Source of the DNA: Pristiophorus japonicus
Taxonomy: Eukaryota
Reading direction: 5' to 3'
Assembly: GCF_044704955.1 (NCBI RefSeq)
Contig: NC_092007.1
Coordinates: 4,960,001 to 5,024,000 of the forward strand
Length of the DNA stretch: 64,000 bases
In this document: piece after piece, positions 11,501 through 34,200 of the stretch
Position numbering within the stretch: position 1 is the stretch's first letter
How the letters are laid out: each line of letters starts with the position of its first letter
The notes under the pieces: model-generated
The model's database searches: none
Told to the model about the DNA's origin: nothing
What the model saw: the letters and a program-made list of their open reading frames with translations, nothing else
Made by a program: the position numbers and the translations under genes

Positions 11501-14500
11501 ACGCAATAATACTCGCCGTCATCTTCAGAACTAATGTTGTGAAATGTGTGCTTCAGTTCACCGGTGGATGATCTGCTGATCTCAGTGACAACTCGGACCA
11601 ATGTTAAATTGACGGGCTGGTCACCCAGAGCCCTGCAGTACAATAATAATGAAGTACCCTCCACTATTACGATAGAAGAATTGAAGCTTGGTTTCTCCAG
11701 TGCATCTGAAACACACGAGAGCATTGATGTTATTGGAGAATATCGGAGCAGAAGAGTAAAATCAAGTTGGCAATTGAAGAATAATATTAAAGCCGATATG
11801 GTGGCTATATTGCCAAATCTAAATTTAAAAAGCCAGCCTATGATTGTTGGCGCTATACTGCTTAAGATTATTTCAAATTTAGACCAAATTTATCTCAACG
11901 TTTTATCCTCTTCACTTCAAACGTTTGTAGTGACTGCCTGGACGTGATTCTTTTCCACAAATACATCAATCAAGCGGCCATTCCTCCAACAACAATAACA
12001 GTGGCCTTTCCCATCACTTGAACAGAGCTGTTGAGGCGGATTGCAGGCTCCCGACCACCACCGCTGATAACTCGTCACATACACTTATGTTTCAGATGCT
12101 CTCTCGGTGCAACTATATCAGGAATTAGGAGCCTTTGGAATAACATTTGACATAAGTAGCATCTATGGAGCCTTCCAATGTTACTCCCTGGGTCTTTGTC
12201 AATGTGAAATAATACAACTCACAAGAAATGTTTGATAGTCAGTTCGACCCAATGGTTATAGGAATATATCTTACACTTCGAGTACGTTCCGCTATTCAAT
12301 TAGATCATGGCTCATCCATATGGTAGCTCTGCCTACCCGCCTTTGCTTTATCCTTATTTTTAAAAACTATCCATCACATATGTTGTATATTTAATTATCT
12401 AGGCGAGCTATCACTCCACTGAGCATCAAGACAAGTTTGGATCTTGTTTATCAAAGGATGGTGCAATGCAGGGTACAGCAGATACTTACTTTGAATGTGC
12501 AGTGTGAGAGTTTCTTGAACACTCCCCACGAAACCATCAACGACAAGCTGACATCCCAGCGTTTTCCCATTGTGGTCTGGTGATGGGGTGAAGATGAATG
12601 TTGTTGAAACAGCCCATGATCCCTCCAACCTGTTGTCTCTGTATTTGGAATTTTTAGTCTCTTGCAGCAAACGAACATTATCCTCGTCCTGAATCCACGT
12701 CAGTTCTGGATTGGCGGAGGGGCAGCTGGAGGTGACTGAGCAGGTTAAATGTACGGGCTTTCCAGCAATCAATTCCCCAGGGACTGAAATCCATGACTCA
12801 TCTGTAAGCAGTGAAAGGAATTCGTGTGACTGTGGATTTCAATATAACACATGTGGAGGGAAGGGCCAGGCGGTTCAGTTCAATGTCTGAGATAATACCA
12901 TGAGCAAAAATTTATATGTTTTCCACTTGATCTCTGCTATGGGAAGGAGCCGATTGTTAATTATTACTTACAGTCACAGAATCAATCGATTGATACATGT
13001 GTTCATGAACTTAATGTCCTGCCACAATATGAATGAATTATTCATGTGAGCTTGTTTCTGATCGGTCAGTCACCGCTCTGCAGCACACAATTATTTCAAT
13101 TCAAATTGAGGTCAGAAAAAACAGTCAAAACAGAGTCCCAGATTTGGTTCCTTGAGTGTACCTGCGATATTCTTAGTCCAACGGCTCACTCTCACGTGGA
13201 ACAGTTGATTTAGCCATTGCTTATTTTTATTCTTGCTTTAAATTCATTTTCTCTCATTTAGTCTCGCGATAGGAGTGCCACAACTAACCTTCAGGACGAG
13301 GGACACGCTTAACTAACCTGGATTGTTACTGTTACCAACAGCGGGACAGTGCACAGCTATGAGAAGAAAGCAAGACCAGGTTGCGGGTTCAACACCCATT
13401 TAGGGACTTAAGCACAACCTGTAGCCTGACACTCCAGTGCAGTACTGATGCATTGTCACAATGCCGGAGATTCCATTTTACGGATGAGATATGAACCTGT
13501 TCTCCTAATTTACCTCTCAAGTGTACATAACAGTTCGCGCAGTATTATTTTGAATGGGCCTTTGTCCTCGTTAACTTTGATTGATTGACGCGTTATCTGC
13601 AAGGCTGGTGGATGTTTTAAAAGACATATACAGATGTCCTTCAGCCGTGGTGGGCCGAAGGGCCTCTTAATGTAATGTAAGATTAAATATTTCTATGATT
13701 GTATTTTATAACACACACCTGGATATTATTCAGTGTACCAGCCCTGCAGAGATGGCGTGTGACGTGGGCCAATGTCAACATGAAATCTTTCATTTTAGGC
13801 AAAAAATTGAATGGCATTGGCGAGATGGAACATTAACTACAAAAGCAAAAATTCAAAATAACTTACTTAAAATAGAAATATTGACAGGAGTTTTGGAACC
13901 GTATCCTTCTATCTGATCCTGGGAGTTCATGATCTTCAATATGAAGTAATATTCTCCTCCATCGCTCTCCCTGATGTCCTTTAACCGTAAGGAGCATTGC
14001 TTCTTTATAAAGTCGCCGGCTAACTCTGCCCTCCCTCGATAGTCATGGTGCATATTGTCTGCATCTCTGGAATCATAGATAACCGAGACCCCTGGTGCAT
14101 AAAGATGAGGACTCCCCTTTAACCACATACCCTGTGGATTGCGACCATTCGTGGGATAGTCAAATCTACACGGGATCTTTGCACATGAACCCTTCACCGC
14201 CGATAAACTCCATGGTGTCGTCACAGACCATCGTGAACTACGTACAACTGGTGAAGAAATAGAAATTAAACATCCATTGAAATCCCCAATATGAATACTT
14301 TCCCTCATCGTCAGGTTAAATACTATTACTTTAACCTTTGACGCCCACGAAAACATATTAATGAGTACCTCAATGAAAAGGCGTTAACTTTTAATTAAAA
14401 CTCCTCCAATTCCATTAACTACTCCATTGAAAGTCGGCAAATCAGAAAGTAAATATTAAATCAATATGATAAATACATAAAGAAGTTCTGAATAAAACAT

Positions 14501-14665
14501 ATTAAAAGTGCAATTCACAAATTACTAGTTAAGCATGTACTATATCTATAAAGTAAGAACGTTTTAATTGAACACAAAATGGAAATCGTTTCGAACATCA
14601 ATTAGTAAACTGAACATTTTACCTTTACAGAATATCAGAATGGAGATAAATGTTAAACTCTTCAT
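5335..14665 (-). CDS. Copy A: Siglec/MAG-like Ig-superfamily receptor, inhibitory type (SP-V-C2-C2-C2-TM-ITIM/ITSM-like), 8 coding exons, 527 aa
   Basis: Exons (minus strand): 14623-14665, 13867-14247, 12490-12801, 11448-11705, 10400-10687, 8698-8782, 7535-7583, 5335-5502. All introns are GT-AG with compatible phases (1,1,1,1,1,2,0). Total 1584 nt = 527 aa + stop. Siglec-type cysteine pattern (CAKIPC...QCSL in V; LTCSVTSSCP in D2). Confidence 0.88.
6560..7020 (+). mobile_element. Composite CR1-like fragments
   Basis: LEKSRLRGDLIEVCTILKG remnant. Confidence 0.7.
7535..7583 (-). CDS. Copy A exon 7, juxtamembrane cytoplasmic (KKTRDTTGVVPTNSDT)
   Basis: ttctttttgtatcag| acceptor, ACG|GTGAGT donor; phase 2->0 bridges the TM and terminal exons exactly. 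Confidence 0.75.
7720..8460 (-). mobile_element. CR1-like LINE fragment with a nested + strand CR1 3' tail (~8125-8222)
   Basis: Reverse-complement CR1 ORF2 end interrupted by gtgggattaggct...ctatgaatctatg. Confidence 0.75.
8698..8782 (-). CDS. Copy A exon 6, transmembrane, uncharged core (GTFPWKIAISVLAAVTVLLLMLIALKVRR)
   Basis: tttttacttttag| acceptor, AG|GTATGT donor, phase 1->2; homologous to the TM exons of B-E (WKIA.S). Confidence 0.88.
9255..9595 (+). mobile_element. CR1-like LINE 3' fragment
   Basis: DRKDLFPLAEWSRSRGH..RVVGVWNSL. Confidence 0.8.
10400..10687 (-). CDS. Copy A exon 5, membrane-proximal Ig domain (MAG domain-5-like)
   Basis: ttttttcag| acceptor, G|GTGAGT donor; PTC..GFHCTCSVRAKPPANITW...SSLTL...SCVAGNEHG. 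Confidence 0.92.
10845..10980 (+). mobile_element. Penelope-like element terminal remnant with degenerate hammerhead motif (also ~24425, ~37975, ~51527)
   Basis: CTGACGAAAGG..CTGAAACGTTAACT followed by gatgct.cctgacctgctgag.tttccagc. Confidence 0.55.
11040..11365 (-). mobile_element. CR1-like fragment (one per unit)
   Basis: LFSLENRRLRSDLIDIFKMTKGF. Confidence 0.8.
11448..11705 (-). CDS. Copy A exon 4, Ig domain 3 (C2/I-set)
   Basis: gtgtttcag| acceptor, |GTAAGT donor; EGTSLLLYCRALG...NISSEDDGEYYCVAEN. Confidence 0.92.
12490..12801 (-). CDS. Copy A exon 3, Ig domain 2
   Basis: cttacag| acceptor, |GTAAGT donor; LTCSVTSSCPSANPELTW...FTPSPDHNGKTLGC. Confidence 0.92.
13375..13560 (+). mobile_element. 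Deu-domain SINE (SacSINE1/AmnSINE-like) fragment (one per unit)
   Basis: gggttcaa..gacttaagcaca..ctgacactccagtgcagtactga..cggatgagat; recognised from recall only. Confidence 0.6.
13867..14247 (-). CDS. Copy A exon 2, Siglec-type V-set Ig domain
   Basis: ttcttcaccag| acceptor, |GTAAGT donor; WSVTTP..GSCAKIPCRFDYP..W..YRGRAELAGD..CSLRLKDIRESDGGEYYF. Confidence 0.93.
14623..14665 (-). CDS. Copy A exon 1, signal peptide MKSLTFISILIFCK(V)
   Basis: ccacccATG context, hydrophobic core, AAAG|GTAAAA donor, phase 1 matches the V exon. Confidence 0.8.
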
Positions 14666-15049
14666 GGGTGGAACGGTTCACGATGTCAAAATGACAGAAA
14701 TTGACTCAATCTCAGATATCACTAATCTAGTTCCAGATTCCGTTCGCCGGTAATATCCTGGAGTTCACAGATGACCGAATCAGAGTATCAGCAGGTCAGT
14801 TGAAAGCTATCCAACAAACATTCGACACCGTGGTTGCTCAAACAGCTATCACCACTCCTCGGATGTTGTTCATCAAAACTGCTGCAATTCTGGATCATTT
14901 CGAACGTGACCATGTCCTGTAGTAATTGGCCCGCAGTTACAGGATATGATGAGACCCCGCCTGTTGCTGATTAGCCCTGAGCAGAAATATACCAATTTCC
15001 CCTTCATCAGCACAGCTACAGGGCACGGGTGGCATTCTAGTTTGGAATA

Positions 15050-16590
15050 CAGAATAAATGTTCGGACACTGAAATATGTAGAGGAACAAAGTGGCCTTGG
15101 AGTGCAAGTCCACCGATCCCTGAAGGTAGCAGGACAGGTAGATAAGCTGCTCAAGAAGGCATACGGAATACTAGCATTTATTAGTCAAGGTGCAGAATAC
15201 AAGAACAAAGAGGTTATTCTTGAACTGTATAAAACACTAATTGGACCACTGCTAGAGTACTGTGTGCAGTTCTGGTCTTCACTTTACAGGAAAGATGTGA
15301 TGCACCAGAGAGGGTATGTTGCCTTTAATGGAGAATCTTATATTTGAGGAACGGTACTGTAGGCTGGTGTAGTATTCTTTGAAATAGATGAGGCTGAAGG
15401 AAGATTAAATTGAGCTGTATTACATTATGAGAGGCCTGGATAGAGTGGATAAGAAGGACCTACTTCCTTTAGCAGAGGGGTCAATAACGATGGGGCATAG
15501 ATTAAAAGTAATTGGTAGGAGGTGTAGTGGGCATTTGAGGAGAATTATTTTCAGCCAGAGGGTGATGGGGGACTGGAATCACTGCCTCAAAGCATGGTAG
15601 AGACAGAAACCCTCAGCATCTAAAAATTACGTGGATGTGCACTTGAAGTGCTGTAACCTACAGGGATATGGAGCGAGAGCTGGAAATGGGATTAGGCTGG
15701 CATCGCTGAAATTAACGGACTTATATCCAGGTTGCTGCAATGAAACTTTTCTGATGATTCTAATTACAGTGCTGGAACTGTGAGTTGTGATTCAGCTTTT
15801 AGATTCGAGGGTCTATGTAGCTGGAAGCAATGTGGAAATTTGTCTACAGGAATATATCCCTTCACCTTCTATGTTACAAGAAGGACATAGATGAACTGGA
15901 GAAGGTGCAAATCAGATTTTCAAAAAGTAGACCAGAAATGGGAGAATATAAACAGCAGGAAAGTCTGAACGGTCTGGCAAGCTTTCCTCTAGAAAAGAGA
16001 AGGTGGAGGGGTGACATAATAGAGGCCTGTAAAATGATGAAGGGGTTTGATAGGATAGATGAAGCAGAGATTTTCCACTTGTGCGGGGATCAAAACCAGA
16101 GTTCATCGATATGAGATAGTCATTCAGAAATAACAGAAGGAATTCAGGAGAACCTTATTTACCCAGAGAATGGTGAGAATGTGGAAGTTGCTACCACACG
16201 GAGGGATTGAGGCGAATAGTATAGATGTGTTTAAGAGGCAGCTAGATAGCTACATGAGGGAGAAAGGAATATGCTGCTGGATGAAATAAACTTGGGAGGA
16301 GAAAGCTCCGGTGGAGCATAAACGTTGCCTTGGACAAGTTGGGCCCAATTGCATGTTTCTTTGCTGCACATTTGATGTAATTAACCCTGAATTAATTACA
16401 TCAAGTTTGCTGAGTCTCTCACTATATTCAAGGATGCGATAGATAGATATTTGTAGTTTAGAGAATGAAGAGCTATGTGGAGAGGGCGGGAATTTGCTAA
16501 GGTCGATGATCAGCTATGACCTCATTGAATGGCGGAGCAGGCTTGAGGGGCCATGTTGGCTACTCCTGCTACTATTTCTTATGTACTTTT
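15050..16590 (+). mobile_element. Cluster of CR1-like 3' fragments (one cluster per unit)
   Basis: LGVQVHRSLKVAGQVDK..AYGILAFI..PLLEYCVQFWS; LEKRRWRGDIIEACKMMKGFDR. Confidence 0.85.
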
Positions 16591-17304
16591 GTTCTTTATT
16601 ATGGTTCTGTGTCGTCAATGAGCTCTACGTTTGTTTTTTATTTATTTTTATTTTGTTTCTGTCTTGACTGGTGTATGGAATGTGTATTCAATTCAGGCGC
16701 CAGCTTGGTTTATCTGTCTAGATTAGGGATGTGTGTTCAGATCCAAGACTCAGGTGTTTAACAATAGCTGACTCCATATGCCTGCTCAGTCCCAGAGTGG
16801 AGGGTGATGCAATGCACTTTGCTCAATTACACTCCACACAAAGCCCAGCTTGCTTTGAGGCTCATGGGTTGGGTGTTGTGAAATCAGCATCTGGGCCTAG
16901 TAAGTGTTTACCACTGACAGTCCCTATGGTACATGCTTAGTGTCTCCCTCAGTGTCGCTGCCTCGAGGTGGGTTTATTTGCACCGTGTGTTGTGTAGCAG
17001 CAGAGCGCGCTGTGAAGCGCTGGGTCCTATTTAGCGACTATGTTGTTGTGGTTACCGCAACGCACAGCACCCTGCTATCTCTGGCGTACATGTGAGTGAA
17101 TCATTGTGTACGACGGACATGGATGAAAGATATCTGTTGTCAAGCAACATCTCTTTATACCGTGTGCTGCATCTTGAAATTTCATGTTCTGTTTGCAGCT
17201 CTGTGTTTAACCCTTCAAGCAATGTGAGATTAGGTTTGACAGTGTGCTTGAGTGATTTATATGAAACACGGGTGGAAACTACAAAGAGGATGCCGTTGCC
17301 TCAG

Positions 17305-17585
17305 ATCAGGGCAGTTGGTGCATGGGAACCCCATCCTCTTCCAGTTCCCCTGCAAGTCACAGCATAACCCTGATTTGAATATATATCACCCTCCCTGCAA
17401 CAGAGATAGGGCAAAGTCCTAAAATCCCGGAACTCCGTCCTTAACAGCGCTGTGGGAGTACCTTCACCAGACGGGCTGCAGCGGTTGCAGAGCTCGGCTC
17501 ATTACCAGCTTCTCAGGGGCGATTAGGGATGGGCAATAAATGAGACATTGCAAGCGATGCTCACATTCCAGGAGCGAATAAAAGA
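17305..17585 (+). mobile_element. LINE 3' end fragment, clade not determined (one per unit)
   Basis: Homologous to ~19040-19270; tail ggcgattagggatgggcaataaat. Confidence 0.7.
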
Positions 17586-17794
17586 TATGCAGCTGCATTT
17601 TTCCACGGTCCTCTCCCACCTCCAATATTCAAATTATGCCCCTGTTCTGAAATGTATCTTTATTAGTAAAATGAGTTCCCGCCAGTACCTCAAACAACTA
17701 ACCATTTTTAACTTGCAAGTCACGCAAATAATATCTCCAGGATTTTCGATAGGAGCGGAATTTTTATGATCCTGGCACTGGTTGGCTGGGATGG

Positions 17795-18305
17795 GGATTT
17801 ATAATTGCTGATTGGCCCTTGGATTTTAAGAAAATCGACAATGCAATTGTGTATTGCAGTGTGTTGCCATTTCCTCGACTGCTCCTGCAGCCTGAGCTGA
17901 TGTCGATTCCTTGGGCTCAGTGCGAAAGTGAAAGGCTTCTCCATGCAACAGCACCACACAGTGGCAGCCCGACGGCATTACAAGAGCTATTTTTCACTGC
18001 ACCATCAGACACATCTGGGCTCAGCTGTGGCTAACATCCTCTATCATGCCAAGATTAACTCCTAGTTCACCTCACCTTACCCAACACGTTGCCGAAATGT
18101 ACTTCAGCATCTACAGAATGAAATAGGGAAATGTGTTATTCCTGATACAATGGACTTTCCACTTTTGTCCAACACATCGCACACTTGGATCTGTTCTCTC
18201 TCCACACATGCTCTCAATAGCAGCAACAGCTCCCACCCCTATTTGGATCAGTTTACAGACCAGGCACATGAGTCTTCAGTTGTACAAGCGAAATGCTTCC
18301 GGAAC
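17795..18305 (-). promoter_or_regulatory. Candidate immune-type promoter/enhancer upstream of each gene copy
   Basis: TATAAA 17798-17803(-), CCAAT 17811-17815(-), GAGGAA 17871-17876(-), GAAAGTGAAAG 17924-17934, ACCACA 17953-17958, GGACTTTCC 18152-18160. Confidence 0.3.
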
Positions 18306-18924
18306 AAGTTGTAAACCTTGCGAAATTCCTCTTGTTAAGGTATACTGCTCTTACTGACAAACACGGTCTGGGCCTATTAGGTTGAATTGTTGTAAAGGGT
18401 GGAGTTCTGGCAAGGTGAATTGTTACCATATTTCATGCACATTATTGTGTTTGATGCTTGGAACACAGTTATATCATGGAAATCACCATGATTTTTTTTT
18501 ACTGAATTGGGACATTGAGACTATTTACTTTTCACAGTATCAAGTTCCCAGCATCGGTTTTTGGTCCTTGCACAATGAGCTCACATGGTTGAGCAGATGT
18601 CCCACTGGGAATATCCTAAAGATGCACCATACCAATCGTTGTGGAAATAGCACGGCCCACTAAGTTCTTTGTTTTTAACTCGTGCTGTGCAATTCACTGG
18701 AACTAGTCGCAGTCCCACTACTCTATCCTCACAGCGCTGTACATTATTCCCGTTTAAAATATATATCCAATATGGGTTTGAAAGTTACTATTGATTTTGA
18801 TACTCCCAGATTTTCAGGCAGTGAATTCCATGTCATAACAATTCTCTGTCGATTCCCTGCAAATGTTTTCCAAATTTACTTTCCGGTGCCTTTCAGTTTA
18901 ATGCAGAGCACACCAGTTACCCAC

Positions 18925-19270
18925 CTTCAACACTCACTCCCTCCACCACCGTGGTGCACCGTCTACAAGATGCACTGCAGCAACTCGCCAAGGCTTCTTC
19001 GGCAGCACCTCCCAAACCCGCCACTTCAAACACCTAGAAGGACAAGGACAGCAGGCGCATGGGAACATGACCACCTCCACATTCCCCTCCAAGTCACACA
19101 CCATCCAGACTTGGAAATATATCGCCCGTTCTTTCATCGTCGCCGGGTCAAAATCCTGGAAAGTCCTCCACAACAGCGCTGTGATAGCACCTTCACCACA
19201 CGGACTGCATCGGTTCAAGAAAGCAGCTCACCACCAATTTCTCAAGAGCAATAAGCAACGGGCAATATAT
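18925..19270 (+). mobile_element. LINE ORF2 C-terminal/3' end fragment (one per unit)
   Basis: HSL..CTVYKMHCSNSPRLLRQHLPNP. Confidence 0.75.
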
Positions 19271-19804
19271 TATGTCGTGCCACTGATAAAGAGTCAAACA
19301 TAACTAATTACCCATTATTATAAAATATCTCAGAAAATTATTTAATTGTTAAGCTTCTCTTGGGCTCAAATCGGGACCCTAATAAATCAGGTTGCATGTA
19401 TGTTCCTGGGTTTTATTGACAGGCTGAACATAATGGGAAGATTCAATTCTATTGGCATCATAACATCCTGGGAAAGCTTCACGATTTCAGTGGAAATAGT
19501 GAAGGAGGAAATTGTTGCCGAAAAGCATTTCCAATATAACAAAGTAGCTGGTATTACTCAGAAATATCCACGCTGTCCCAACCACATTTGCTGCATTGAG
19601 TAACAGGAGCATATTTCCACTATTCACTGCACTGTGTCTGACCGGGAGAAGGTGGAGGTTTATTTTGGATGTAAGTATAGCGTTCCACTCTCAGCACCTC
19701 TGAGCTCCAGTAACAAATATCAAAATAAATTAGTTGTGATGTGTTTTAATGAAGCATTGCATAAACTAAACTATGACAAATTACAAGTTACATAACAGAA
19801 TTAT

Positions 19805-20380
19805 GCAATCATAGAAAGGTTACAGCACAGAAGACTATTTGACCCGTCGAACCCATGCCGACTCTCAGCTCGAACCACTCCTGCTCCCTTTTCCCGTGGT
19901 CCTGCATTTTTTCCCTTCAGATATAATCTACCTCAGTTTTGAACGGTAAGATTGATTCTGCTGGCACCGCCCTTCCAGGCAATGCATTCCAGATCCCAAC
20001 CACGCGCCGCATAAAAAGCATTTATCTTACATCACAATTTGCTTCTTTTGCCAATCACCTTAAATCTGTGTTTCTGGTTCTCGACCCTTCTGCCAATGGG
20101 AACAGTTTATCTCAATCTACTCTGTACAGTCCCATCATGATTTTGAACTCCTCTATCAAATCTGCTCTCAATACTATCAGTTCCAAAGATAACAACCCCC
20201 CAGGTTCTCCAGTCTCTCCTCGTAACTGAAGTCCCACATTCTCGGAATCTTTCTCGTAAATCTTTACTGCACCTTCTCTGAAGCAGATGTATCTGTACCC
20301 AGTTGGGGCCGAACCAGTGTTTTATACAGGTTAATCATAACTTCCGCACTTTTGTACTCCCTACCACTATTTATGAGGCC
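19805..20380 (-). mobile_element. CR1-like fragment (one per unit)
   Basis: Reverse complement of the CR1 3' end seen at 20860-21440. Confidence 0.8.
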
Positions 20381-20859
20381 AACTGGCCTTACCTAATTTA
20401 ATTTGCAATTTTCTGCACAGATTGATAATGAGCGGAATCTAATACAGACAGCAATACTTCAGAAACCACGCAGATGCATTGTTTCTTAAACACATGTTCC
20501 TAAATAGTACACGGCTTTTAAATGACCCTATTGAAAACACAATAGTTTGTACAATATCTGTGTATTGTAAAGGTAACTGATTAGAATTGACACTGAGCTG
20601 TGAAGGTTTATTATACTGTGTTGACAGATGCTGCCAAATTAATCCAATTAACTATGGAGAAGTTCCTCATTGACCGCCAGAGTTGTCTAAGACGTTAACA
20701 GAGGGAGGTGTGCAATGCAAACAATCTTAACATTACTGGGGAAGATTGCTACTTTATTAAAGCACATCAACACTGTTTAAAAGTGACTGGAACCATTCAA
20801 GCCAACGGCATTTCAGGCATCTGTTTGGAGTGAAAACAAGTGTGGGATTGTAAATTTCA

Positions 20860-21440
20860 CAAACGCAAGGATGTTATGCCAACCCTTTATAAAATATCGG
20901 ATTGGCCTCAACTGGAGAATTCAGTCCAATTCTGGGCATCGCACATGAGGAAGGACGTGAAGGCCTGAGAGAGGGTGCAGAAAATATATACGAGAATAGT
21001 CCCAATGACGAGGGACTTCAGTTACGTGGAGAGACTGGAGAAGCTGGGGTTGTTCTCCTTAGAGCAGAGACGTTGGAGAGGAGATTTGACAGTGGTGTTC
21101 AGAATCAAAAGTAGATAGAGAGAAATTGTTCCCATTGGAGGAAAGGTCAAGAACCAGAGGACACAGATTTAAGATGATTGCCAGAAGAACCAATGGCGAT
21201 ATGAGGAAAAAATATTACGCAGCGAGTGGTTAGGAGCTGGAATGCACTGCCTGGACGGGTGGTGGAGGCAGATTCAATCGTGGCTTTCAAAAGAGAATTG
21301 GATATGTACCTGAAGGAGAATAAATGCAAGGCTACAGGTAAAGGGCGGGGCAGTGGGATTGGCTGAAATGCTCTTGCAGAGATCCGGCACGGATTGGAAG
21401 GGGGCCAATGACCTCCTTTTTTGCTGTAACGATTTTAGAA
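20860..21440 (+). mobile_element. CR1-like 3' fragment (one per unit)
   Basis: ttacgtggagagactggagaagctggggttgttctccttagagcagag..tggaatgcactgcctg. Confidence 0.85.
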
Positions 21441-21549
21441 TTTTATTTTGTTTAAAAAAAACACAGTAAACAGAACTGAAAATATTAGCGATTAATCTGC
21501 GAAATTTGCTCATTTTCACAGAAATTGCAGGCATATGAACTTTAAAATC

Positions 21550-21712
21550 ATTTAACTTTGCAGCATATTAACTGTAATCTTCATTCTTGAGATACCTTTC
21601 ATATTTGTGAAAGTTTCAAACTTCCAGCGATTGGCGCCGGAAACTCGACACTTTGCGCCAATTGGATGGATGCTGTCCATCTGCTAGCAATGTTTCTCTC
21701 CTGGTCTTGGCT
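21550..21712 (-). pseudogene. Decayed homologue of the ITIM/ITSM terminal exon downstream of copy B TM
   Basis: SQDQERNI..AQS aligns with RQDKSRNI..AQS of copy A. The ITIM Tyr is lost and there is a frameshift; the shifted frame reads HKYERYLKNEDYS*YAA versus RKHERYQKNEESTEYAA. Confidence 0.85.
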
Positions 21713-21959
21713 CTGTAACAGAAAGCAGTGCGTTAGAAAAGGGGGTGAGGCCACTTTCTGTCCCAGAATAACCCTCTTTCTCGCTGCTCAGATCATTTTC
21801 AATCTTTCCCTACTCAATGATGGAAACATTCTGAGCGTTGCAACATGCAGGACCTATGAAAAGACGAACACGAAAATAACAGATGCCAAATCGAGCCTAT
21901 CCCAAACAGTCAGGACGCAACAATGCCTCAGGATTGCAACTCTCCCTCTCGGCACCATG

Positions 21960-24900
21960 TCAGCTCTGACTGGTGGGAAATAACGTAATAAAAAAGTACT
22001 GGGTCAATTCAGCAATAAATACATCTGCAAATGTCTTCTCCTACCTCTATGACGAACAAAACGAGTTTCAATTGATAACAATGTCGATGAGGTACATCAC
22101 CTAACAGAGCAACTAAGATTTGCCCGCAATGATATTAGCCCCAGGAGCGGATTCTACCCGTTCCAGTCCAGCAATTCTTGCTCATATGCTGAAATTCTGA
22201 CGACACGTTATTTTGAAATCTCTCTTTATTACCCCACGAGTTGAAGTAATTATTCCCATACCCGTGTAAGTCCATTTCTTTCATCACCAAGACAATGATG
22301 GCAATCAGAATGAGAACGGCAACAGCGTTTCTGATTGACATGGCGATTTTCCAAAATGATCCTGAAAATATTCAACAACAAAAAACACGCTCTTCATTAT
22401 TGCTCTGATTAACCCAGGTTTCTCGATAGCATTTAACAACATGTATGGGACTATTAAGATAGAAATCAACTCACATTTATTTAGTGCTTTTCCCAACCTC
22501 GCAACCCACTTTACAGCCAATGAAGTACGATGGAAGTTTATTCACTGTTGCACTGCAGGTAACGTGGCAGCTGTATTGCGCATAGAATGCTCCCACAAAC
22601 AGCGATGAGATAAATAAGCAGATAATCTCTTTCAGTATTACTGGTTGAGGGATAAATAATTGCCAAGGCATCGGAAAGCGCTGCACCTGCTCGTCTTCAA
22701 TCGATTCAGTATTACAGCATCCCTTAGAAAATGCAGCTATCCACATCGCATACTCGAATCTGCTCCTCCGTTATCCGATATCTTAATTCAGTCCATAAGT
22801 TGTGTTTAAAGTTAATCTGCGCCAATTGTCAGTATTTTGACACGTGATAGTTTGCTCAGAATATCAATAAAACTGACATTCGGCTAAAAAAACTGCGTGA
22901 AAATAAATTGAACTGAGCATTTGTAAATTGAATGATGGACTGTGCCCCACTAATGTTACAGTGAGCGCAAATATGGTTTCATAGAGTGTGTCACTAATTC
23001 AGAAAGTTCTGTTTTTTATAAACGATGACACATTCCTTCTAGTGTTTTATATTACACTTTCTATCTTCGTTAAAAAAGGCGACAATAATCAAATTCAGAA
23101 GACCAGAATATAAACTTGACGGGGATTATTCTCATCTGAATTTCGCGAGCAGCATGAACCAGAGCCAAACACTACTAAAATTAAGAATGGTATACGTCCT
23201 AAATTGCAAATAATCAGAGAAAAATACAACATTACTGCATAGGAGGAGGACATTCGGCCCATCATGTTCCTGCCGGCCAATTTAGCATTATCCAGCCTAA
23301 TTCCATTTTCAAGCTCATCGTCATATCCAACTAAATGCTATGGGAGAGTGTGCCTCTAAAGTCTTTCTGGCGGTGATTTGCAGAGCACGACCATCCTCTG
23401 GTGAAAGCATATCATCTCAAATCCCCTCTAATCCTTCTACAAATTACTTGAAATAAGTATGGTATTACGGACTCAGTGGAATTATTGCCTTCTCAGGGAT
23501 ACTCTGAAATAGCTGCAAGCCCTCCGTAGTTAAGCTGTGTGGCCAAGTTAAATCTGAGCATCGATCAAGTGATTGAGAGCCTGCAGCTCACTACCATTAC
23601 AATGAAAGGAAACCAGACGTCATAAAGTCTCCGATCAATTCAGAAGGTCTCGCTTGTTTAACGATCATACGCTACCTTTACTGTTTAATGTTAACCCCTT
23701 CCTCTCATCACAAGCACAGTGCGACCATAACTTAATTCAGAAAATCAGTGATTAAATTTTACATTTTTCCAACAATTTTAAGATAGCAGACAGTCACTAA
23801 CCAGACAATTACTCTACTGAAATTAGCAATGGATTCAGTCCTCAATCATAGATCAGTAAGTTAATACAAGCTCAAATGGAACTGATATTTGCTGACACTA
23901 ATTCTGTTCACTTAGTATCGGGCCAATGATGGAATAAACCAGCTATTTTAATCAAATTGCAGCAAATCTCAACACTCACCTGTTGAACAGATCTGATATT
24001 TGCCGACACTAACACCGTGTTCGTTCCATGCAACACAGGAGATATGGTGTCCTGTACCGGTTGGGTGGGTCAGTGTCAGATAGCTCTGCACCAGGGAATT
24101 ATTCATTGACCGGGTGGTGACTCCGAGACCTGGCATGTTTCTAGTGATGTTTCTTCCATTGACGCTCCAGGTGATGTTTGCCGGGGGCTTGGCTCTTACA
24201 CTGCAGGTACAATGAAACCCACTCTCAAATCTGGTGCAGGTCGGGCCCCATACTATGGTGGGTTTAACTGAAAAAATAGACAGTTCCACTTAAGATGATT
24301 TTAATCATGCAGTTGCATTGTTTAAGTTAAACCAATTGGCGCTATTTGGAGAAGCACAGGAGTGAACACAAAGCCCGGCATTACCAATAAAAAAACTTGC
24401 ATTTCAACTTGCATTCCAATCTCCAGTTCTGATGAAAGGTCCGCGGCCCGAATCGTTAACTCTGCCTTCTTTGCACAGATGCTGCCTGACCTGCTGAGTT
24501 TTGCAGCATTTTCAGATTTTATTCCAGATTCTAGCATCCGCAGTTTTTTGCTTTTTTTAATTTGCATTAATATAGCGCCGCTAACGTGGCAAAAATTCCC
24601 AATGAGCTTCAAAAGTTCACAGAAGACTACATCGGAAGTTTGGCACAGAAACGGTACAGTTGGCTCAACCACTCCATGCCTGAGTTAATGCTCCACTCGA
24701 GCATCCTCCCGTCTTTCCTCATCTAAAGCTATCAGCATAACGCTCTATTCCCTTCTCCCTCATACGCTTTTTCAACATCACTTTACATGCATCTGTTCAA
24801 TCAGCTTCAACCACTCGCTGTAAAGAAGTTCCTTCTGAATTCCCTCTGGGATATATCTTTTTGTCTACCCTATAAAAACCTTTCGTCATTTTAAAGATGT

Positions 24901-27900
24901 CAATTAGATCACTCCTCAGCCTTCTATTTTCAAGTGAAAAAAGACCCCAAAGAGCGTTAGCAAACAACATTTGATACGGATCATTCCTGTACCGTTACAA
25001 ATTTAATTGGCTCACATCACACTTACATTGTACAGAAATCTGTGTGGATCTGTTGGCGGTGCTCAGGTTATTTTCAGCCACGCAATAATACTCGCCGTCA
25101 TCTTCAGAACTAATGTTGTGAAATGTGTGCTTCAGTTCACCGGTGGATGATCTGCTGATCTCAGTGACAACTCGGACCAATGTTAAATTGACGGGCTGGT
25201 CACCCAGAGCCCTGCAGTACAATAATAATGAAGTGCCCTCCACTATTACGATAGAAGAATTGAAGCTTGGTTTCTCCAGTGCATCTGAAACACACGAGAG
25301 CATTGGTGTTATTGGAGAATATCGGAGCAGAAGAGTAAAGTCAATTTGGCAATTGAAGAATAATATTAAAGCCGATATGGTGGCTATATTGCCAAATCTA
25401 AATTTAAAAAGCCAGCCTATGATTGTTGGCGCTGTACTGCTTAAGATTATTTCAAATTTAGACCAAATTTATCTCAACGTTTTATCCTCTTCACTTCAAA
25501 CGTTTGTAGTGACTGCCTGGACGTGATTCTTTTCCACAGAAACATCAATCAAGCGGCCATTCCTCCAACAACAAGAACAGTGGCCTTTCTCATCACTTGA
25601 ACAGAGCTGTTGAGGCGGATTGCAGGCTCCCGACCACCACCGCTGATAACTCGTCACATACACTTATGTTTCAGATGCTCTCTCGGTGCAACTATATCAG
25701 GAATTAGGAGCCTTTGGAATAACATTTGACATAAGTAGCATCTATGGAGCCTTCCAATGTTACTCCCTGGGTCTTTGTCAATGTGAAATAATACAACTCA
25801 CAAGAAATGTTTGATAGTCAGTTCGACCCAATGGTTATAGGAATATATCTTACACTTCGAGTACGTTCCGCTATTCAATTAGATCATGGCTCATCCATAT
25901 GGTAGCTCTGCCTACCCGCTTTTGCTTTATTCTTATTTTTAAAAACTATCCATCACATATGTTGTATATTTAATTATCTCGGCGAGCTATCACTCCACTG
26001 AGCATCAAGACAAGTTTGGATCCTGTTTATCAAAGGATGATGCAATGCAGGGTACAGCAGATACTTACTTTGAATGTGCAGTGTGAGAGTTTCTTGAACA
26101 CTCCCCTCGACACCATCAACGACAAGCTGACATCCCAGCTTTTTCCCATTGTGGTCTGGTGATGGGGTGAAGATGAATGTTGTTGAAATAGCCCATGATC
26201 CCTCCAACCTGTTGTCTCTGTATTTGGAATTTTTAGTCTCTTGCAGCAAACGAACATTATCCTCGTCCTGAATCCACGTCAGTTTTGGATTGGCGGAGGG
26301 GCAGCTGGAGGTGACTGAGCAGGTTAAATATACGGGCTTTCCAGCAATCAATTCCCCAGGGACTGAAATCCATGACTTATGTGTAAGCAGTGAAAGGAAT
26401 TCGTGTGACTGTGGATTTCAATATAACACATGTGGAGGGAAGGGCCAGGCGGTTCAGTTCAATGTCTGAGATAATACCATGAGCAAAAATTTATATGTTT
26501 TCCACTTGATCTCTGCTATGGGAAGGAGCCGATTGTTAATTATTACTTACGGTCACAGAATCAATCGATTGATGCATGTGTTCATGAACTTAATGTCCTG
26601 CCACAATATGAATGAATTATTCATGTGGGCTTGTTTCTGATCGGTCAGTCACCGCTCTGCAGCACACAATTATTTCAATTCAAATTAAGGTCAGAAAAAA
26701 CATTCAAAACAGAGTCCGAGATTTGGTTCCTTGAGTATACCTGGGATATTCTTAGTCCAACGGCTCACTCTCACGTGGAACAGTTGATTTAGCCATTGCT
26801 TATTTTTATTCTTGCTTTTAATTCATTTTCTCTCATTTAGTCTCGCGATAGGAGTGCCACAACTAACCTTCAGGACGAGGGACACGCTTAACAAACCTGG
26901 TTTGTTACTGTTACCAACAGCGGGACAGTGCACAGCTATGAGAAGAAAGCAAGACCAGGTTGCGGGTTCAAGACCCATTTCAGAGACTTAAGCACAACCT
27001 GTAGCCTGACACTCCAGTGCAGTACTGATGCATTGTCACAATGCCGGAGATTCCATTTTACGGATGAGATATTAACCTGTTCTCCTAATTTACCTCTCAA
27101 GTGTACATAACAGTTCGCACAGTATTATTTTGAATGAGCCTTTGTCCTCGTTAACTTTGATTGATCGACGCGTTATCTGCAAGGCTGGTGGATGTTTTAA
27201 AAGACAAATACAGATGTCCTTCAGCCGTGGTGGGCCGAAGGGCCTCTTAATGTAATGTAAGATTAAATATTTCTATGATTGTATTTTATAACACACACCT
27301 GGATATTATTCAGTGTACCAGCCCTGCAGAGATGGCGTGTGACGTGGGCCAATGTCAACATGAAATCTTTCATTTTAGGCAAAAATTGAATGGCATTGGC
27401 GAGATGGAACATTAACTACAAAACGAAAAATTCAAAATAACTTACTTAAAATAGAAAGATTGACAGGAGTTTTGGAACCGTATCCTTCTATCTGATCCTG
27501 GGAGTTCATGATCTTCAATATGAAGTAATATTCTCCTCCATCGCTCTCCCTGATGTCCTTTAACCGTAAGGAGCATTGCTTCTTTATAAAGTCGCCGGCT
27601 AACTCTGCCCTCCCTCGATAGTCATGGTGCATATTGTCTGCATCTCTGGAATCATAGATAACCGAGACCCCTGGTGCATAAAGATGAGGACTCCCCTTTA
27701 ACCACATACCCTGTGGATTGCGACCATTCGTGGGATAGTCAAATCTACACGGGATCTTTGCACATGAACCCTTCACCGTCGATAAACTCCATGGTGTCGT
27801 CACAGACCATCGTGAACTACGTACAACTGGTGAAGAAATAGAAATTAAACATCCATTGAAATCCCCAATATGAATACTTTCCCTCATCGTCAGGTTAAAT

Positions 27901-28244
27901 AATATTACTTTAACCTTTGACGCCCACGAAAACATATTAATGAGTACCTCAATGAAAAGGCGTTAAATTTTAATTAAAACTCCTCCAATTCCATTAACTA
28001 CTCCATTGAAAGCCGGCAAATCAGAAAGTAAATATTAAATCAATATGATAAATACATAAAGAAGTTCTGAATAAAACATATTAAAAGTGCAAATCACAAA
28101 TTACTAGTTAAGCATGTACTATCTCTATAAAGTAAGAACGTTTTAATTGAACACAAAATGGAAATCGTTTCGAACATCAATTAGTAAACTGAACATTTTA
28201 CCTTTACAGAATATCAGAATGGAGATAAATGTTAAACTCTTCAT
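21960..28244 (-). CDS. Copy B: Siglec-like receptor, activating type (TM Arg, short tail); D2 acceptor mutated
   Basis: Exons: 28202-28244 (SP), 27446-27826 (V), 26069-26380 (D2, acceptor AG->AC), 25027-25284 (D3), 23980-24267 (D4), 22262-22361 (TM: GSFWKIAMSIRNAVAVLILIAIIVLVMKEMDLHG). Probable last coding bit 21960-21969 (GQS*). The 3' end is uncertain. Confidence 0.75.
22262..22361 (-). CDS. Copy B transmembrane exon with Arg
   Basis: atattttcag| acceptor, GG|GTATGG donor, phase 1->2 as in copy A. Confidence 0.85.
22470..22730 (-). mobile_element. Deu-domain SINE 3' part (one per unit)
   Basis: cactttacagccaatgaagtac..cccacaaacagc..ggttgagggataaat; recognised from recall only. Confidence 0.6.
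23980..24267 (-). CDS. Copy B membrane-proximal Ig exon
   Basis: GT-AG intact; 14 aa differences from copy A. Confidence 0.9.
25027..25284 (-). CDS. Copy B Ig domain 3 exon
   Basis: Protein identical to copy A; GT-AG intact. Confidence 0.9.
26069..26380 (-). CDS. Copy B Ig domain 2 exon (canonical acceptor lost)
   Basis: Open frame; acceptor reads cttacac instead of cttacag. Confidence 0.75.
27446..27826 (-). CDS. Copy B V-set exon
   Basis: Same splice sites as copy A; 2 aa differences. Confidence 0.9.
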
Positions 28245-31200
28245 GGGTGGAACGGTTCACGATGTCAAAATGACAGAAATTGACTCAATCTCAGATATCA
28301 CTAATCTAGTTCCAGATTCCGTTCGCCGGTAATATCCTGGAGTTCACAGATGACCGAATCAGAGTATCAGCAGGTCAGTTGAAAGCTATCCAACAAACAT
28401 TCAACACCGTGGTTGCTCAAACAGCTATCACCACTCCTCGGATGTTGTTCATCAAAACTGCTGCAATTCTGGATCATTTCGAACGTGACCATGTCCTGTA
28501 GTAATTGGCCCGCAGTTACAGGATATGCTGAGACCCCGCCTGTTGCTGATTAGCTCTGAGCAGAAATATACCAATTTCCCCTTCATCAGCACAGCTACAG
28601 GGCACGGGTGGCATTCTAGTTTGGAATACAGAATAAATGTTCGGACACTGAAATATGTAGAGGAACAAAGTGGCCTTGGAGTGCAAGTCCACCGATCCCT
28701 GAAGGTAGCAGGACAGGTAGATAAGCTGCTCAAGAAGGCATACGGAATACTAGCATTTATTAGTCAAGGTGCAGAATACAAGAACAAAGAGGTTATTCTT
28801 GAACTGTATAAAACACTAATTGGACCACTGCTAGAGTACTGTGTGCAGTTCTGGTCTTCACTTTACAGGAAAGATGTGATGCACCAGAGAGGGTATGTTG
28901 CCTTTAATGGAGAATCTTATATTTGAGGAACGGTACTATAGGCTGGGGTAGTATTCTTTGAAATAGATGAGGCTGAAGGAAGATTAAATTGAGCTGTATT
29001 ACATTATGAGAGGCCTGGATAGAGTGGATAAGAAGGACCTACTTCCTTTAGCAGAGGGGTCAATAACGATGGGGCATAGATTAAAAGTAATTGGTAGGAG
29101 GTGTAGTGGGCATTTGAGGAGAATTATTTTCAGCCAGAGGGTGATGGGGGACTGGAATCACTGCCTCAAAGCATGGTAGAGACAGAAACCCTCAGCATCT
29201 AAAAATTACATGGATGTGCACTTGAAGTGCTGTAACCTACAGGGATATGGAGCGAGAGCTGGAAATGGGATTAGGCTGGCATCGCTGAAATTAACGGACT
29301 TATATCCAGGTTGCTGCAATGAAACTTTTCTGATGATTCTGATTACAGTGCTGGAACTGTGAGTTGTGATTCAGCTTTTAGATTCGAGGGTCTATGTAGC
29401 TGGAAGCAATGTGGAAATTTGTCTACAGGAATATATCCCTTCACCTTCTATGTTACAAGAAGGACATAGATGAATTGGAGAAGGTGCAAATCAGATTTTC
29501 AAAAAGTAGACCAGAAATGGGAGAATATAACCAGCAGGAAAGTCTGAACGGTCTGGCAAGCTTTCCTCTAGAAAAGAGAAGGTGGAGGGGTGACATAATA
29601 GAGGCCTGTAAAATGATGAAGGGGTTTGATAGGATAGATGAAGCAGAGATTTTCCACTTGTGCGGGGATCAAAACCAGAGTTCATCGATATGAGATAGTC
29701 ATTCAGAAATAACAGAAGGAATTCAGGAGAACCTTATTTACCCAGAGAATGGTGAGAATGTGGAAGTTGCTACCACACGGAGGGATTGAGGCGAATAGTA
29801 TAGATGTGTTTAAGAGGCAGCTAGATAGCTACATGAGGGAGAAAGGAATATGCTGCTGGATGAAATAAACTTGGGAGGAGAAAGCTCCGGTGGAGCATAA
29901 ACGTTGCCTTGGACAAGTTGGGCCCAATTGCATGTTTCTTTGCTGCACATTTGATGTAATTAACCCTGAATTAATTGCATCAAGTTTGCTGAGTATCTCA
30001 CTATATTCAAGGATGCGATAGATAGATATTTGTAGTTTAGAGAATGAAGGCTATGTGGAGAGGGCGGGAATTTGCTAAGGTCGATGATCAGCTATGACCT
30101 CATTGAATGGCGGAGCAGGCTTGAGGGGCCATGTTGGCTACTCCTGCTACTATTTCTTATGTACTTTTGTTCTTTATTATGGTTCTGTGTCGACAATGAG
30201 CTCTACGTTTGTTTTTTATTTATTTTTATTTTGTTTCTGTCTTGACTGGTGTATGGAATGTGTATTCAACTCAGGCGCCAGCTTGGTTTATCTGTCTCGA
30301 TTAGGGATGTGCGTTCAGATCCAAGACTCAGGTGTTTAACAATACCTGACTCCATATGCCTGCTCAGTCCCAGAGTGGAGGGTGATGCAATGTACTTTGC
30401 TCAATTACACTCCACACAAGGCCCAGCTTGCTTTGAGGCTCACGGGTTGGGTATTGTGTAATCAGCATCTGGGTCTAGTAAGTGTTTACCACTGACTGCC
30501 CCTATGGTACATGCTCAGTGTCTCCCTCAGTGTCGCTGCCTCGAGGTGGGTTTATTTACACCGTGTGTTGTGTAGCACCAGAGCGCGCTGTGAAGCGCTG
30601 GGTCCTATTTAGCGACTGTGTTGTTGTGGTTACCGCAACGCACAGCACCCTGCTATCTCTGGCGTACATGTAAGTGAATCATTGTGTACGACGGACATGG
30701 ATGAAAGATATCTGTTGTCAAGCAACATCTCTTTATACCGTGTGCTGCATCTTGAAATTTCATGGTCTGTTTGCAGCTCTGTGTTTAACCCTTCAAGCAA
30801 TGTGAGATCAACTTTGACAGTGTGCTTGAGTGATTTATATGAAACACGGGTGGAAGCTACAACGAGGATGCCGTTGCCTCATATCAGGGCAGTTAGTGCA
30901 TGGGAACTCCATCCTCTTCCAGTTCCCCTGCAAGTCACAGCATAACCCTGATTTGAATATGTATCACCCTCCCTGCAACAGAGATAGGGCAAAGTCCTAA
31001 AATCCCGGAACTCCGTCCTTAACAGCGCTGTGGGAGTACCTTCACCACACGGGCTGCAGCGGTTGCAGAGCTCGGCTCATTACCAGCTTCTCAGGGGCGA
31101 TTAGGGATGGGCAATAAATGAGACATTGCAAGCGATGCTCACATTCCAGGAGCGAATAAAAGATATGCAGCTGCATTTTTCCACGGTCCTCTCCCACCTC

Positions 31201-34200
31201 CAATATTCAAATTATGCCCCTGTTCTGAAATGTATCTTTATTAGTAAAATGAGTTCCCGCCAGTACCTCAAACAACTAACCATTTTTAACTTGCAAGTCA
31301 CGCAAATAATATCTCCAGGATTTTCGATAGGAGCGGAATTTTTATGATCCTGGCACTGGTTGGCTGGGATGGGGATTTATAATTGCTGATTGGCCCTTGG
31401 ATTTTAAGAAAATCGACAATGCAATTGTGTATTGCAGTGTGTTGCCATTTCCTCGACTGCTCCTGCAGCCTGAGCTCATGGAGATTCCTTGGGCTCAGTG
31501 CGAAAGTGAAAGGCTTCTCCATGCAACAGCACCACACAGTGGCAGCCCGACGGCATTACAAGAGATGTTTTTCACTGCACCATCAGACACATCTGGGCTC
31601 AGCTGTGGCTAACATCCTCTATCATGCCAAGATTAACTCCTAGTTCACCTCACCTTACCCAACACGTTGCCGAAATGTACTTCAGCATCTACAGAATGAA
31701 ATAGGGGAATGTGTTATTCCTGATACAATGGACTTTCCACTTTTGTCCAACACATCGCACACTTGGATCTGTTCTCTCTCCACACATGCTCTCAATAGTA
31801 GCAACAGCTCCCACTCCTATTTGGATCAGTTTACAGACCAGGCACATGAGTCTTCAGTTGTACAAGCGAAATGCTTCCGGAACAAGTTGTAAACCTTGCG
31901 AAATTCCTCTTGTTAAGGTATACTGCTCTTACTGACAAACACGGTCTGGGCCTATTAGGTTGAATTGTTGTAAAGGGTGGAGTTCTGGCAAGGTGAATTG
32001 TTACCATATTTCATGCACATTATTGTGTTCGATGCTTGGAACACAGTTATATCATGGAAATCACCGTGATTTTCTTTACTGAATTGGGACATTGAGACTA
32101 TTTACTTTTCACAGTATCAAGTTCCCAGCATCGGTTTTTGGTCCTTGCACAATGAGCTCACATGGTTGAGCAGATGTCCCACTGGGAATATCCTAAAGAT
32201 GCACCATACCAATCGTTGTGGAAATAGCACGGCCCACTAAGTTCTTTGTTTTTAACTCGTGCTGTGCAATTCACTGGAACTAGTCGCAGTCCCACTACTC
32301 TATCCTCACAGCGCTGTACATTATTCCCGTTTAAAATATATATCCAATATGGGTTTGAAAGTTACTATTGATTTTGATACTCCCACATTTTCAGGCAGTG
32401 AATTCCATGTCATAACAATTCTCTGTCTATTCCCTGCAAATGTTTTCCAAATTTACTTTCCGGTGCCTTTCAGTTTAATGCAGAGCACACCAGTTACCCA
32501 CCTTCAACACTCACTCCCTCCACCACCCTGGTGCACCGTCTTCAAGATGCACTGCAGCAACTCGCCAAGGCTTCTTCGGCAGCACCTCCCAAACCCGCCA
32601 CTTCAAACACCTAGAAGGACAAGGGCAGCAGGCGCATGGGAACACGACCACCTCCAAGTTCCCCTCCCAGTCACACACCGTCCAGACTTGGAAATATATC
32701 GCCCGTTCTTTCAACGTCGCCGGGTCAAAATCCTGGAAAGTCCTCCACAACAGCGCTGTGATAGCACCTTCACCACACGGACTGCATCGGTTCAAGAAGG
32801 CAGCTCACCACCAATTTCTCAAGAGCAATAAGCAACGGGCAATATATTATGTCGTGCCACTGATAAAGAGTCAAACATAACTAATTACCCATTATTATAA
32901 AATATCTCAGAAAATTATTCAATTGTTAAGCTTCTCTTGGGCTCAAATCGGGACCCTAATAAACGAGGTTGCATGTATGTTCCTGGGTTTTATTGACAGG
33001 CTGAACATAATGGGAAGATTCAATTTTATTGGCATCATAACATCCTGGGAAAGCTTCACGATTTCAGTGGAAATAGTGAAGGAGGAAATTGTTGCCGAAA
33101 AGCATTTCCAATATAACAAAGTAGCTGGTATTACTCAGAAATATCCACGCTGTCCCAACCACATTTGCTGCATTGAGTAACAGGAGCATATTTCCACTAT
33201 TCACTGCACTGTGTCTGACCGGGAGAAGGTGGAGGTTTATTTTGGATGTAAGTATAGCGTTCCACTCTCAGCATCTCTGAGCTCCAGTAACAAATATCAA
33301 AATAAATTAGTTGTGATGTGTTTTAATGAAACTATGACAAATTACAAGTTACATAACAGAATTATGCAATCATAGAAAGGTTACAGCACAGAAGACTATT
33401 TGACCCGTCGAACCCATGCCGACTCTCATCTCGATCCACTCCTGCTCCCTTTTCCCGTGGTCCTGCATTTTTTCCCTTCAGATATAATCTACCTCAGTTT
33501 TGAAAGGTAAGATTGATTCTGCTGGCACCGCCCTTCCAGGCAATGCATTCCAGATCCCAACCACGCGCCGCATAAAAAGCATTTATCTTACATCGCAATT
33601 TGCTTCTTTTGCCAATCACCTTAAATCTGTGTTTCTGGTTCTCGACCCTTCTGCCAATGGGAACAGTTTATCTCAATCTACTCTGTACAGTCCCATCATG
33701 ATTTTGAACTCCTCTATCAAATCTGCTCTCAATACTATCAGTTCCAAAGATAACAACCCCCCAGGTTCTCCACTCTCTCCTCGTAACTGAAGTCCCACAT
33801 TCTCGGAATCTTTCTCGTAAATCTTTACTGCACCTTCTCTGAAGCAGATGTATCTGTACCCAGTTGGGGCCGAACCAGTGTTTTATACAGGTTAATCATA
33901 ACTTCCGCACTTTTGTACTCCCTACCACTATTTATGAGGCCAACTGGCCTTACCTAATTGAATTTGCAATTTTCTGCACAGTCTGATAATGAGCGGAATC
34001 TGATACAGACAGCAATACTTCAGAAACCACGCAGATGCATTGTTTCTTAAACACATGTTCCTAAATAGTACACGGCTTTTAAATGACCCTTTTGAAAACA
34101 CAATAGTTTGTACAATATCTGTGTATTGTAATGGTAACTGATTAGAATTGACACTGAGCTGTGAAGGTTTATTATACTGTGTTGACAGATGCTGCCAAAT

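Follow-up and report, generated by a model that had tools for sequence, protein, structure and literature searches.

Arginine-type Siglec-like genes in the shark Pristiophorus japonicus as likely activating partners of a linked inhibitory gene

Introduction

Do the linked Siglec-like genes of the shark Pristiophorus japonicus include activating partners of an inhibitory receptor and, if so, with which signalling adaptor would those partners pair? The question is raised by a 64-kb stretch of DNA (hereafter the window, numbered from its first letter) that contains five minus-strand transmembrane (TM) exons, A to E. The initial annotation of this stretch described a leucine-to-arginine switch near the outer end of the TM in copies B to E, and proposed that they encode FcRγ-coupled Siglec-like receptors, a convergent solution to that of receptors such as LILRA. 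It is already known that paired receptors are made from inhibitory ancestors. For cartilaginous fish, a whale shark genome paper names Siglecs once, in a list (PMC8455134), and the statement that fish genomes lack inhibitory CD33-related Siglecs is one on teleosts (PMC7226832). We found no paper on shark Siglecs or their adaptors among the open-licence papers listed.

Results and Discussion

Gene anatomy and the tandem array

Exon models built from splice signals and homology give genes A to D a signal exon, a V-set exon, three C2-set exons and a TM exon, with every junction in phase 1. On the minus strand, the ectodomain exons of A occupy 10400..14665 (signal 14623-14665, V 13867-14247, C2a 12490-12801, C2b 11448-11705, C2c 10400-10687), those of B 23980..28244 (signal 28202-28244, V 27446-27826, C2a 26069-26380, C2b 25027-25284, C2c 23980-24267), and those of C and D 37539..41792 and 51081..55346, respectively. 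The ectodomain exons of E lie beyond the window, and ectodomain comparisons cover A to D. Only the model of A has two extra exons after the TM, the last of which (5335..5502, minus strand, with AATAAA at 5071) holds an ITIM, VVYAAV, and an ITSM/ITIM-like motif, TEYAAL.

Positions 9913..64000 form a tandem array (no strand assigned) of ~13.56-kb units with 97-98% identity, each linking one gene's TM and 3' part with the ectodomain of the gene that follows. Pairwise differences between units are 1.38-1.47%, one pair differing at 1/8581 nt; all four units agree in 8050 of 8568 non-coding triplets (94%). Units 2 and 3 (window 23493-50599) show the single difference in 8581 nt over most of their length and differ by 1-2% near one end; their near-identity points either to unequal crossover in the very recent past or to an effect of assembly. 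Divergence between A and the arginine copies rises stepwise within 9700-11150, from ~2% above 11143 through 12-15% over C2c to ~33% below 10146, marking old and recent crossover or conversion boundaries. Elsewhere, decayed interspersed repeats with mutual identity of 70-80% are present at 846-1194, 4131-4644, 7734-8442, 15194-16213 and 19875-21438. The open reading frame fragments in these repeats resemble what we take to be LINE reverse-transcriptase ends.

Two old types of TM exon

The TM exon of B (22262..22361, minus strand; 100 nt, phase 1 to phase 2), delimited by translation and splice ends, encodes in order Trp-Lys, an arginine (residue 11 of the exon), a run of 16 uncharged residues and finally Lys-Glu. 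The modelled arginine-type exons of C (35823..35922), D (49371..49470) and E (62941..63040), also on the minus strand, are 100 nt each with AG/GT ends as in B, and B differs from C-E at four sites, all non-synonymous. The TM exon modelled for A (8698..8782, minus strand) is 85 nt long and its core is without a charged residue. Counting from the exon start on the minus strand, the arginine codon is AGA in all four copies (22330..22332 in B, 35891-35893 in C, 49439-49441 in D and 63009-63011 in E) and its counterpart in A is the leucine codon CTC (8748-8750), so the peptides and coordinates first quoted are correct.

The initial annotation had also drawn support from the codon being kept in all four copies and from the change being multi-nucleotide; neither argument holds. 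An invariant AGA in B to E is expected because the units are near-identical, with 94% of non-coding triplets equally invariant, and units this alike are not four independent pieces of evidence. Across 22 TM codons, 26 of the 66 nt are different between A and B, and 4 of the 22 codons have every base changed, which is no point switch. We therefore set both arguments aside as evidence. The introns flanking the two TM exons are still alignable, with 124/214 (upstream) and 142/217 (downstream) bases identical; the alignment scores, 104 and 118, exceed the highest values among 500 base shuffles (95 and 97, respectively). From these comparisons we read the A and B TM exons as old paralogues, not alleles of one switch.

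The arginine type in other sharks

The same TM type was found, among the 150 matches listed, in Cetorhinus maximus (XP_078392811.1) and Mustelus asterias (XP_078093181.1), both from this shark subfamily, and the 12 matches of a further search held no others. Both TMs align to that of B ungapped over 33 residues with the arginine in the same column, and only 7-9 of 23 core residues are identical to B; three of the 23 core columns, Ile10, Arg11 and Ala21, are invariant in the window, Cetorhinus and Mustelus. The arginine is thus more than chance, being conserved in two other shark orders. Mustelus XP_078093181.1 has a short tail without an ITIM, whereas a paralogue with the adjoining accession, on a contig of equal length, does carry ITIMs.

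V domains group by species (support 100/100 and 100/98) and TM exons by type (97/98), the latter grouping keeping support of 92/95 when the arginine column, the proline gap and the extension are removed. The TM-exon trees rest on 26-34 columns, and the alternative tree placing A, B and C together is not rejected (p-AU 0.107); the Heptranchias row was excluded from the reduced-column and alternative-tree tests. A single old origin of the arginine, with ectodomains homogenised later, is favoured by these trees but not proven.

Scored against a background of 191 TMs (mean 24.5), the shark arginine TMs resemble A and six shark inhibitory TMs (scores 36-49, matched by at most 1 of the 191). Scores with five mammalian Siglec-14-type TMs (17.5-23; 112-187 background TMs as high or higher) and with three (N/D)IIR TMs, one from a named teleost (28-30.5; 20-37 as high), fall within the background, and derivation of the shark arginine TM from a Siglec-14-type or a teleost (N/D)IIR-type TM was rejected. 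A shark/horse match with arginine at 'position 11 after a Gly' was not taken as homology. The arginine looks to have been gained independently in sharks, apart from mammalian Siglec-14 and LRC-type TMs, and for the residue itself the word convergent is a fair one.

Outer TM arginines also occur elsewhere among Siglec-like proteins. Scyliorhinus torazame XP_072326180.1 (P0019), of another Siglec-like subfamily, has one together with a short tail, and its TM shows no clear kinship to that of the window. Three long multi-Ig proteins with Siglec-like V domains (P0020, P0022 and P0095; one from the teleost Scatophagus argus, annotation hemicentin- or perlecan-like) have a TM that opens with NIIR or DIIR, a true or near NxxR motif.

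A decayed ITIM exon below each arginine TM

Below the TM exon of B lies a decayed homologue of the terminal ITIM exon of A (21545..21712, minus strand), identified by alignment against shuffles: 136 of 192 aligned nucleotides are identical and the score of 197 compares with a maximum of 87 in 500 shuffles. Its ITIM tyrosine codon is lost, the frame is shifted by a deletion of 2 nt, and just ahead of the second tyrosine comes a TAA stop. Homology to the same exon of A places the starts of its counterparts at 35273 in C, 48821 in D and 62392 in E (minus strand), such that all four arginine copies carry the relic 548-549 nt below the arginine TM exon with both tyrosine motifs destroyed. The presence of this relic in each copy argues that the arginine genes descend from an inhibitory gene, which we regard as the strongest new result of the analysis, although the relic falls beyond the coordinates first annotated. 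In B the relic may still be usable as a 3' exon, because its acceptor is retained and AATAAA follows at 21447.

No ITIM or two-tyrosine ITAM was found in any of the 26 tail routes scanned, which comprised read-through and candidate acceptors; the signalling motifs present were limited to a lone YxxL, in a single route, and to the YxN of the read-through. The read-through frame after the B TM donor (22135-22261, minus strand) is 42 residues long with two YxN motifs and AATAAA in frame at 22230. These YxN motifs were not counted, since the sequence is homologous to an intron of A and unconserved in Mustelus. Below B, a candidate homologue of A tail exon 2 reached a non-significant score of 81 (mean of shuffles 75, maximum 102), and the predicted Cetorhinus tail gave no match to frames below B or C (scores 20-25).

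The tail of A has itself changed. The exon model and shark comparison place tail exon 2 of A at 7535..7583 (minus strand) with a shifted donor: over 7496-7583 the ancestral donor is apparently lost (GT to TT), and an in-phase upstream donor would be used instead. The shift omits 13 codons that contain a first ITIM in Heptranchias and other sharks and what is left of it in A, where the stretch now has two TAG stops, and A would be truncated if the upstream donor were unused.

Condition of the copies

The arginine copies could instead be mostly decaying duplicates, or partly an over-expansion of the assembly, the arginine then being inherited baggage. The C2a acceptor AG has become AC in B (26381) and C (39929), that is, in two of the three visible arginine-copy ectodomains, and a 12-nt in-frame deletion in C2c of C (37539-37814) takes out the core tryptophan, both as decay would predict. 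Purifying selection among the copies is also not evident, as five of six pairs show, in C2a, 5-10 codon differences that are non-synonymous and 0-1 that are synonymous; differences between copies in V and C2a are mostly non-synonymous and too few to part drift from selection. C and D share a non-consensus GTCAGT donor after C2b (38574 and 52128). The 1/8581 difference between units 2 and 3 would suit over-expansion, but the same units differ by 1-2% elsewhere. The broken C2a acceptor could be bypassed by an in-frame AG 18 nt downstream (an out-of-frame AG lies at +5) or by exon skipping, which preserves the frame. Moreover, D is intact, with every frame open and all GT/AG in place, no modelled coding exon contains a stop or frameshift, and the arginine type is conserved in other sharks. 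We consider decay or over-expansion a very unlikely account of the arginine copies.

Siglec-like ectodomains that have lost the essential arginine

The V exon matches the Pfam V-set and Ig_CD22 families, and the best PDB matches of the V domain are MAG, sialoadhesin, Siglec-8, -7, -10 and -5, and CD33. Siglecs are marked by two cysteines close to the B strand, a single one on the E strand and an extra cysteine in domain 2. Such characteristic cysteines are present here, V-domain Cys 21, 26 and 84 aligning with those of MAG and sialoadhesin and C2a having three, within a Siglec layout of an N-terminal V-set homologous to Siglec domain 1, C2-set domains and a type I membrane protein. The nearest proteins are shark RefSeq models with the automatic names 'MAG-like' or 'Siglec-5/13/14-like'; A shares 62% identity with Heptranchias perlo XP_067831352.1 and 43-50% with the seven other proteins compared. 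The Pfam and PDB matches back the first description of these genes as Siglec-like. The V-domain tree places the window sequences within a group rich in sharks (92/87) and separate from MAG, sialoadhesin and the mammalian CD33-related Siglecs; its deep nodes are weakly supported. The membrane-proximal part of P0031 has SIGLECL1 as its best Atlas feature match (0.96), which we treat as a lead only.

The F-strand arginine that is essential to Siglecs (R97 of sialoadhesin) aligns with isoleucine, codon ATA, in the four V exons of A to D (13940-13942 in A and 27519-27521 in B, minus strand). It is kept in 8 of 18 shark or ray V domains picked from the matches and replaced in the other 10 by Ile, Thr, Ala, Ser or Lys, and its loss among sharks and rays seems recurrent. 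Because the essential V-set arginine is isoleucine, A to D probably do not have canonically bound sialic acid as their ligand, and we refer to the copies as Siglec-like proteins without classing them as sialic-acid-binding Siglecs. Their ectodomains are very alike, with 0-2 of 126 codons different in V and 0-2 of 85 in C2b across A to D. As in paired receptors, these linked genes have near-identical ectodomains and comprise one form that bears ITIMs and another that lacks them but has a basic residue in its TM.

Position of the arginine in the membrane

TM hydropathy prediction bore out the placement of the arginine near the outer end, at position 2-5 of the best 19-residue Kyte-Doolittle windows. 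Some equally good windows begin just after it, most clearly in Cetorhinus, and an approximate insertion scale likewise gave near-equal windows including the arginine or starting just after it. The uncharged run that follows is 16 residues then Lys-Glu in the window, 17 then Asp in Mustelus, and 21 in Cetorhinus, such that the inner TM end has an acidic residue in the first two and none in Cetorhinus. A single-sequence AlphaFold model of the TM frame, one long helix over residues 2-65 (pTM 0.32), is uninformative on membrane depth. On hydropathy we place the arginine at the outer TM edge, and it may lie in the head-group zone, given that some equal windows start after it.

If so, the residue could be an interfacial anchor snorkelling to the head groups, and B to E could be adaptor-free, tail-less decoys or adhesion forms that rival A for ligand. 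Several top-scoring windows do start at or just past the arginine, the TM is ~3 residues longer than that of A on the inner side, which would allow a surface arginine, and the tail routes offer no signalling motif beyond the lone YxxL (one route) and the read-through YxN. However, three lineages keep Ile-Arg in a single column even as ~60% of the TM changes, which a mere anchor need not do, Trp-Lys/Arg/Asp already marks the outer interface, and 16-17 uncharged residues after the arginine in two of the three lineages are short for a full TM. An anchor function appears unlikely on this evidence.

Choice of adaptor

We regard B to E as likely activating partners of A because they combine an outer-end arginine with a decayed ITIM exon. 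For the adaptor, accessible literature describes coupling of CD89 to γγ through an arginine that lies close to the top of its TM, assumes a like arginine coupling to ζ/γ for NKp46 and NKp30, and notes that DxxxT-type adaptors mostly take a central lysine and that NKG2D uses a mid-TM arginine for DAP10 (PMC13107469). NxxR, a DYT motif and an acidic C-end are the defining marks of the conserved FcRγ-binding TM (PMC6557307, PMC2413239, PMC4536121). NxxR and DYT are both absent from the shark arginine TMs of the window, Cetorhinus and Mustelus, where the residue at -3 is Met, Leu or Phe. Of the initial proposal of FcRγ-coupled Siglec-like receptors, the Siglec-like identity, the activating type and the outer arginine therefore stand, and FcRγ itself is not established.

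An outer-end TM arginine is also found in five Siglec-14-type TMs among the 120 of 988 mammalian matches listed, namely P0184 and P0253 (named Siglec-14, equid), P0257, P0185 and P0235. In human Siglec-14 the outer TM arginine is presumably the DAP12 contact; we found no paper on Siglec-14 Arg362 or R362A in the open-licence literature. Reviews give DAP12 as the adaptor of Siglec-14 and link Siglec-14, -15 and -16 to DAP12 via a lysine or arginine (PMC13358205, PMC13233462, PMC6288428, PMC6890642, PMC12706041). The contrast first drawn, in which arginine denotes FcRγ and Siglecs use DAP12, is undercut by Siglec-14-type TMs with an outer arginine and the report of Siglec-14 with DAP12.

These observations open an alternative in which B to E are activating receptors whose arginine engages DAP12 or DAP10, as reported for Siglec-14, and the convergence would be on the Siglec-14 solution, not the LILRA solution. 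In its favour are the outer-end arginine shared by the five mammalian TMs, the tie of Siglec-14, -15 and -16 to DAP12 in reviews, the NKG2D precedent of a mid-TM arginine for DAP10, and the absence of NxxR here together with a 2014 survey, predating current genomes, that detected no FcRγ chain in the shark data existing at that time (PMC4016189). On the other side, the shark TMs score against Siglec-14 TMs (17.5-23) below the background mean of 24.5 for 191 TMs, and the post-arginine run is 16-17 in the window and Mustelus versus 20 in four of the five Siglec-14-type TMs. The general rule for DAP12 is also a central lysine (PMC13107469). DAP12 or DAP10 coupling seems to us doubtful, and coupling to a γ/ζ-type (FcRγ/CD3ζ) adaptor, which the outer position of the arginine favours, an evenly balanced proposition.

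Proposed origin and comparison with known systems

The explanation that we propose, to which we give about even credence as a whole, is that B to E are likely activating partners of the inhibitory gene A, their outer-end arginine pairing with an ITAM adaptor that would be FcRγ or CD3ζ over DAP12. We infer an early shark duplication of an inhibitory gene, after which one descendant would have gained the arginine, extended its TM by ~3 residues and shed the tyrosine motifs. Within each species the ectodomains would then be kept alike by unequal crossover or conversion, and the 13.56-kb unit would have been multiplied recently in this one. Under this model the arginine of B to E would pair with the two aspartates that an ITAM adaptor dimer contributes, FcRγ/CD3ζ type being more likely than DAP12, and A and B to E would see the same ligand and give opposite signals.

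This arrangement resembles the primate pairs SIGLEC5/SIGLEC14 and SIGLEC11/SIGLEC16, described as combining near-identical ectodomains with an ITIM form, a short-tailed form with a basic TM residue and gene conversion; SIGLEC16 is reported to derive from the inhibitory SIGLEC11, as B to E appear to from an inhibitory gene, and Siglec-14-type TMs share the outer arginine. In contrast to the primate pairs, the present one belongs to a cartilaginous-fish lineage, its arginine TM appears to come from a shark inhibitory TM unlike that of Siglec-14, there are at least four activating-type copies per inhibitory gene in the window, and the essential arginine is lost in all four visible V domains. The NxxR-TM receptors of FcRγ (LILRA, GPVI, NKp46, FcαRI, OSCAR, TARM1 and Xenopus XFL) are like B to E in having an arginine near the TM top and a short tail; of their inner-end acidic residue, the window and Mustelus have a counterpart and Cetorhinus has none. 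Unlike them, B to E lack Asn at -3 and DYT, have a Siglec V-set ectodomain in place of LRC or FcR C2 domains, and would be of separate origin. Activating KIRs likewise go back to inhibitory KIRs that acquired a basic residue in the TM (PMC6557307), and differ in using lysine with DAP12 and in their unrelated ectodomain. The closest relatives, Heptranchias XP_067831352.1, Mustelus XP_078093181.1 and XP_078093182.1, and Cetorhinus XP_078392811.1, share the family and TM types; the essential arginine, kept in 8 of the 18 shark or ray V domains checked, is missing in the window's copies. What appears new is a shark-specific, arginine-type and essential-arginine-negative pair in which the lost ITIM exon can still be read as a fossil.

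We offer, tentatively, a broader reading that we hold less probable than not: sharks may have made their own pair before the major shark split, γ/ζ-type without NxxR, and in the present lineage the whole pair would have dropped canonical sialic-acid binding and be undergoing amplification against a protein ligand, probably a pathogen's. If true, the dead ITIM exon would be a readable fossil of the conversion of an inhibitory into an activating receptor, and B to E would include the first γ/ζ-coupled Siglec-family receptor among those we found described. As the paired design is already familiar, the gain would be for comparative immunology, with no new mechanism. The locus offers a natural test of adaptor choice, setting residue type and depth against the NxxR motif, and bears on which ITAM adaptors cartilaginous fish use. 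Paired Siglecs have so far been described from mammals, and a separately evolved shark pair would show that the design arose more than once in the Siglec family.
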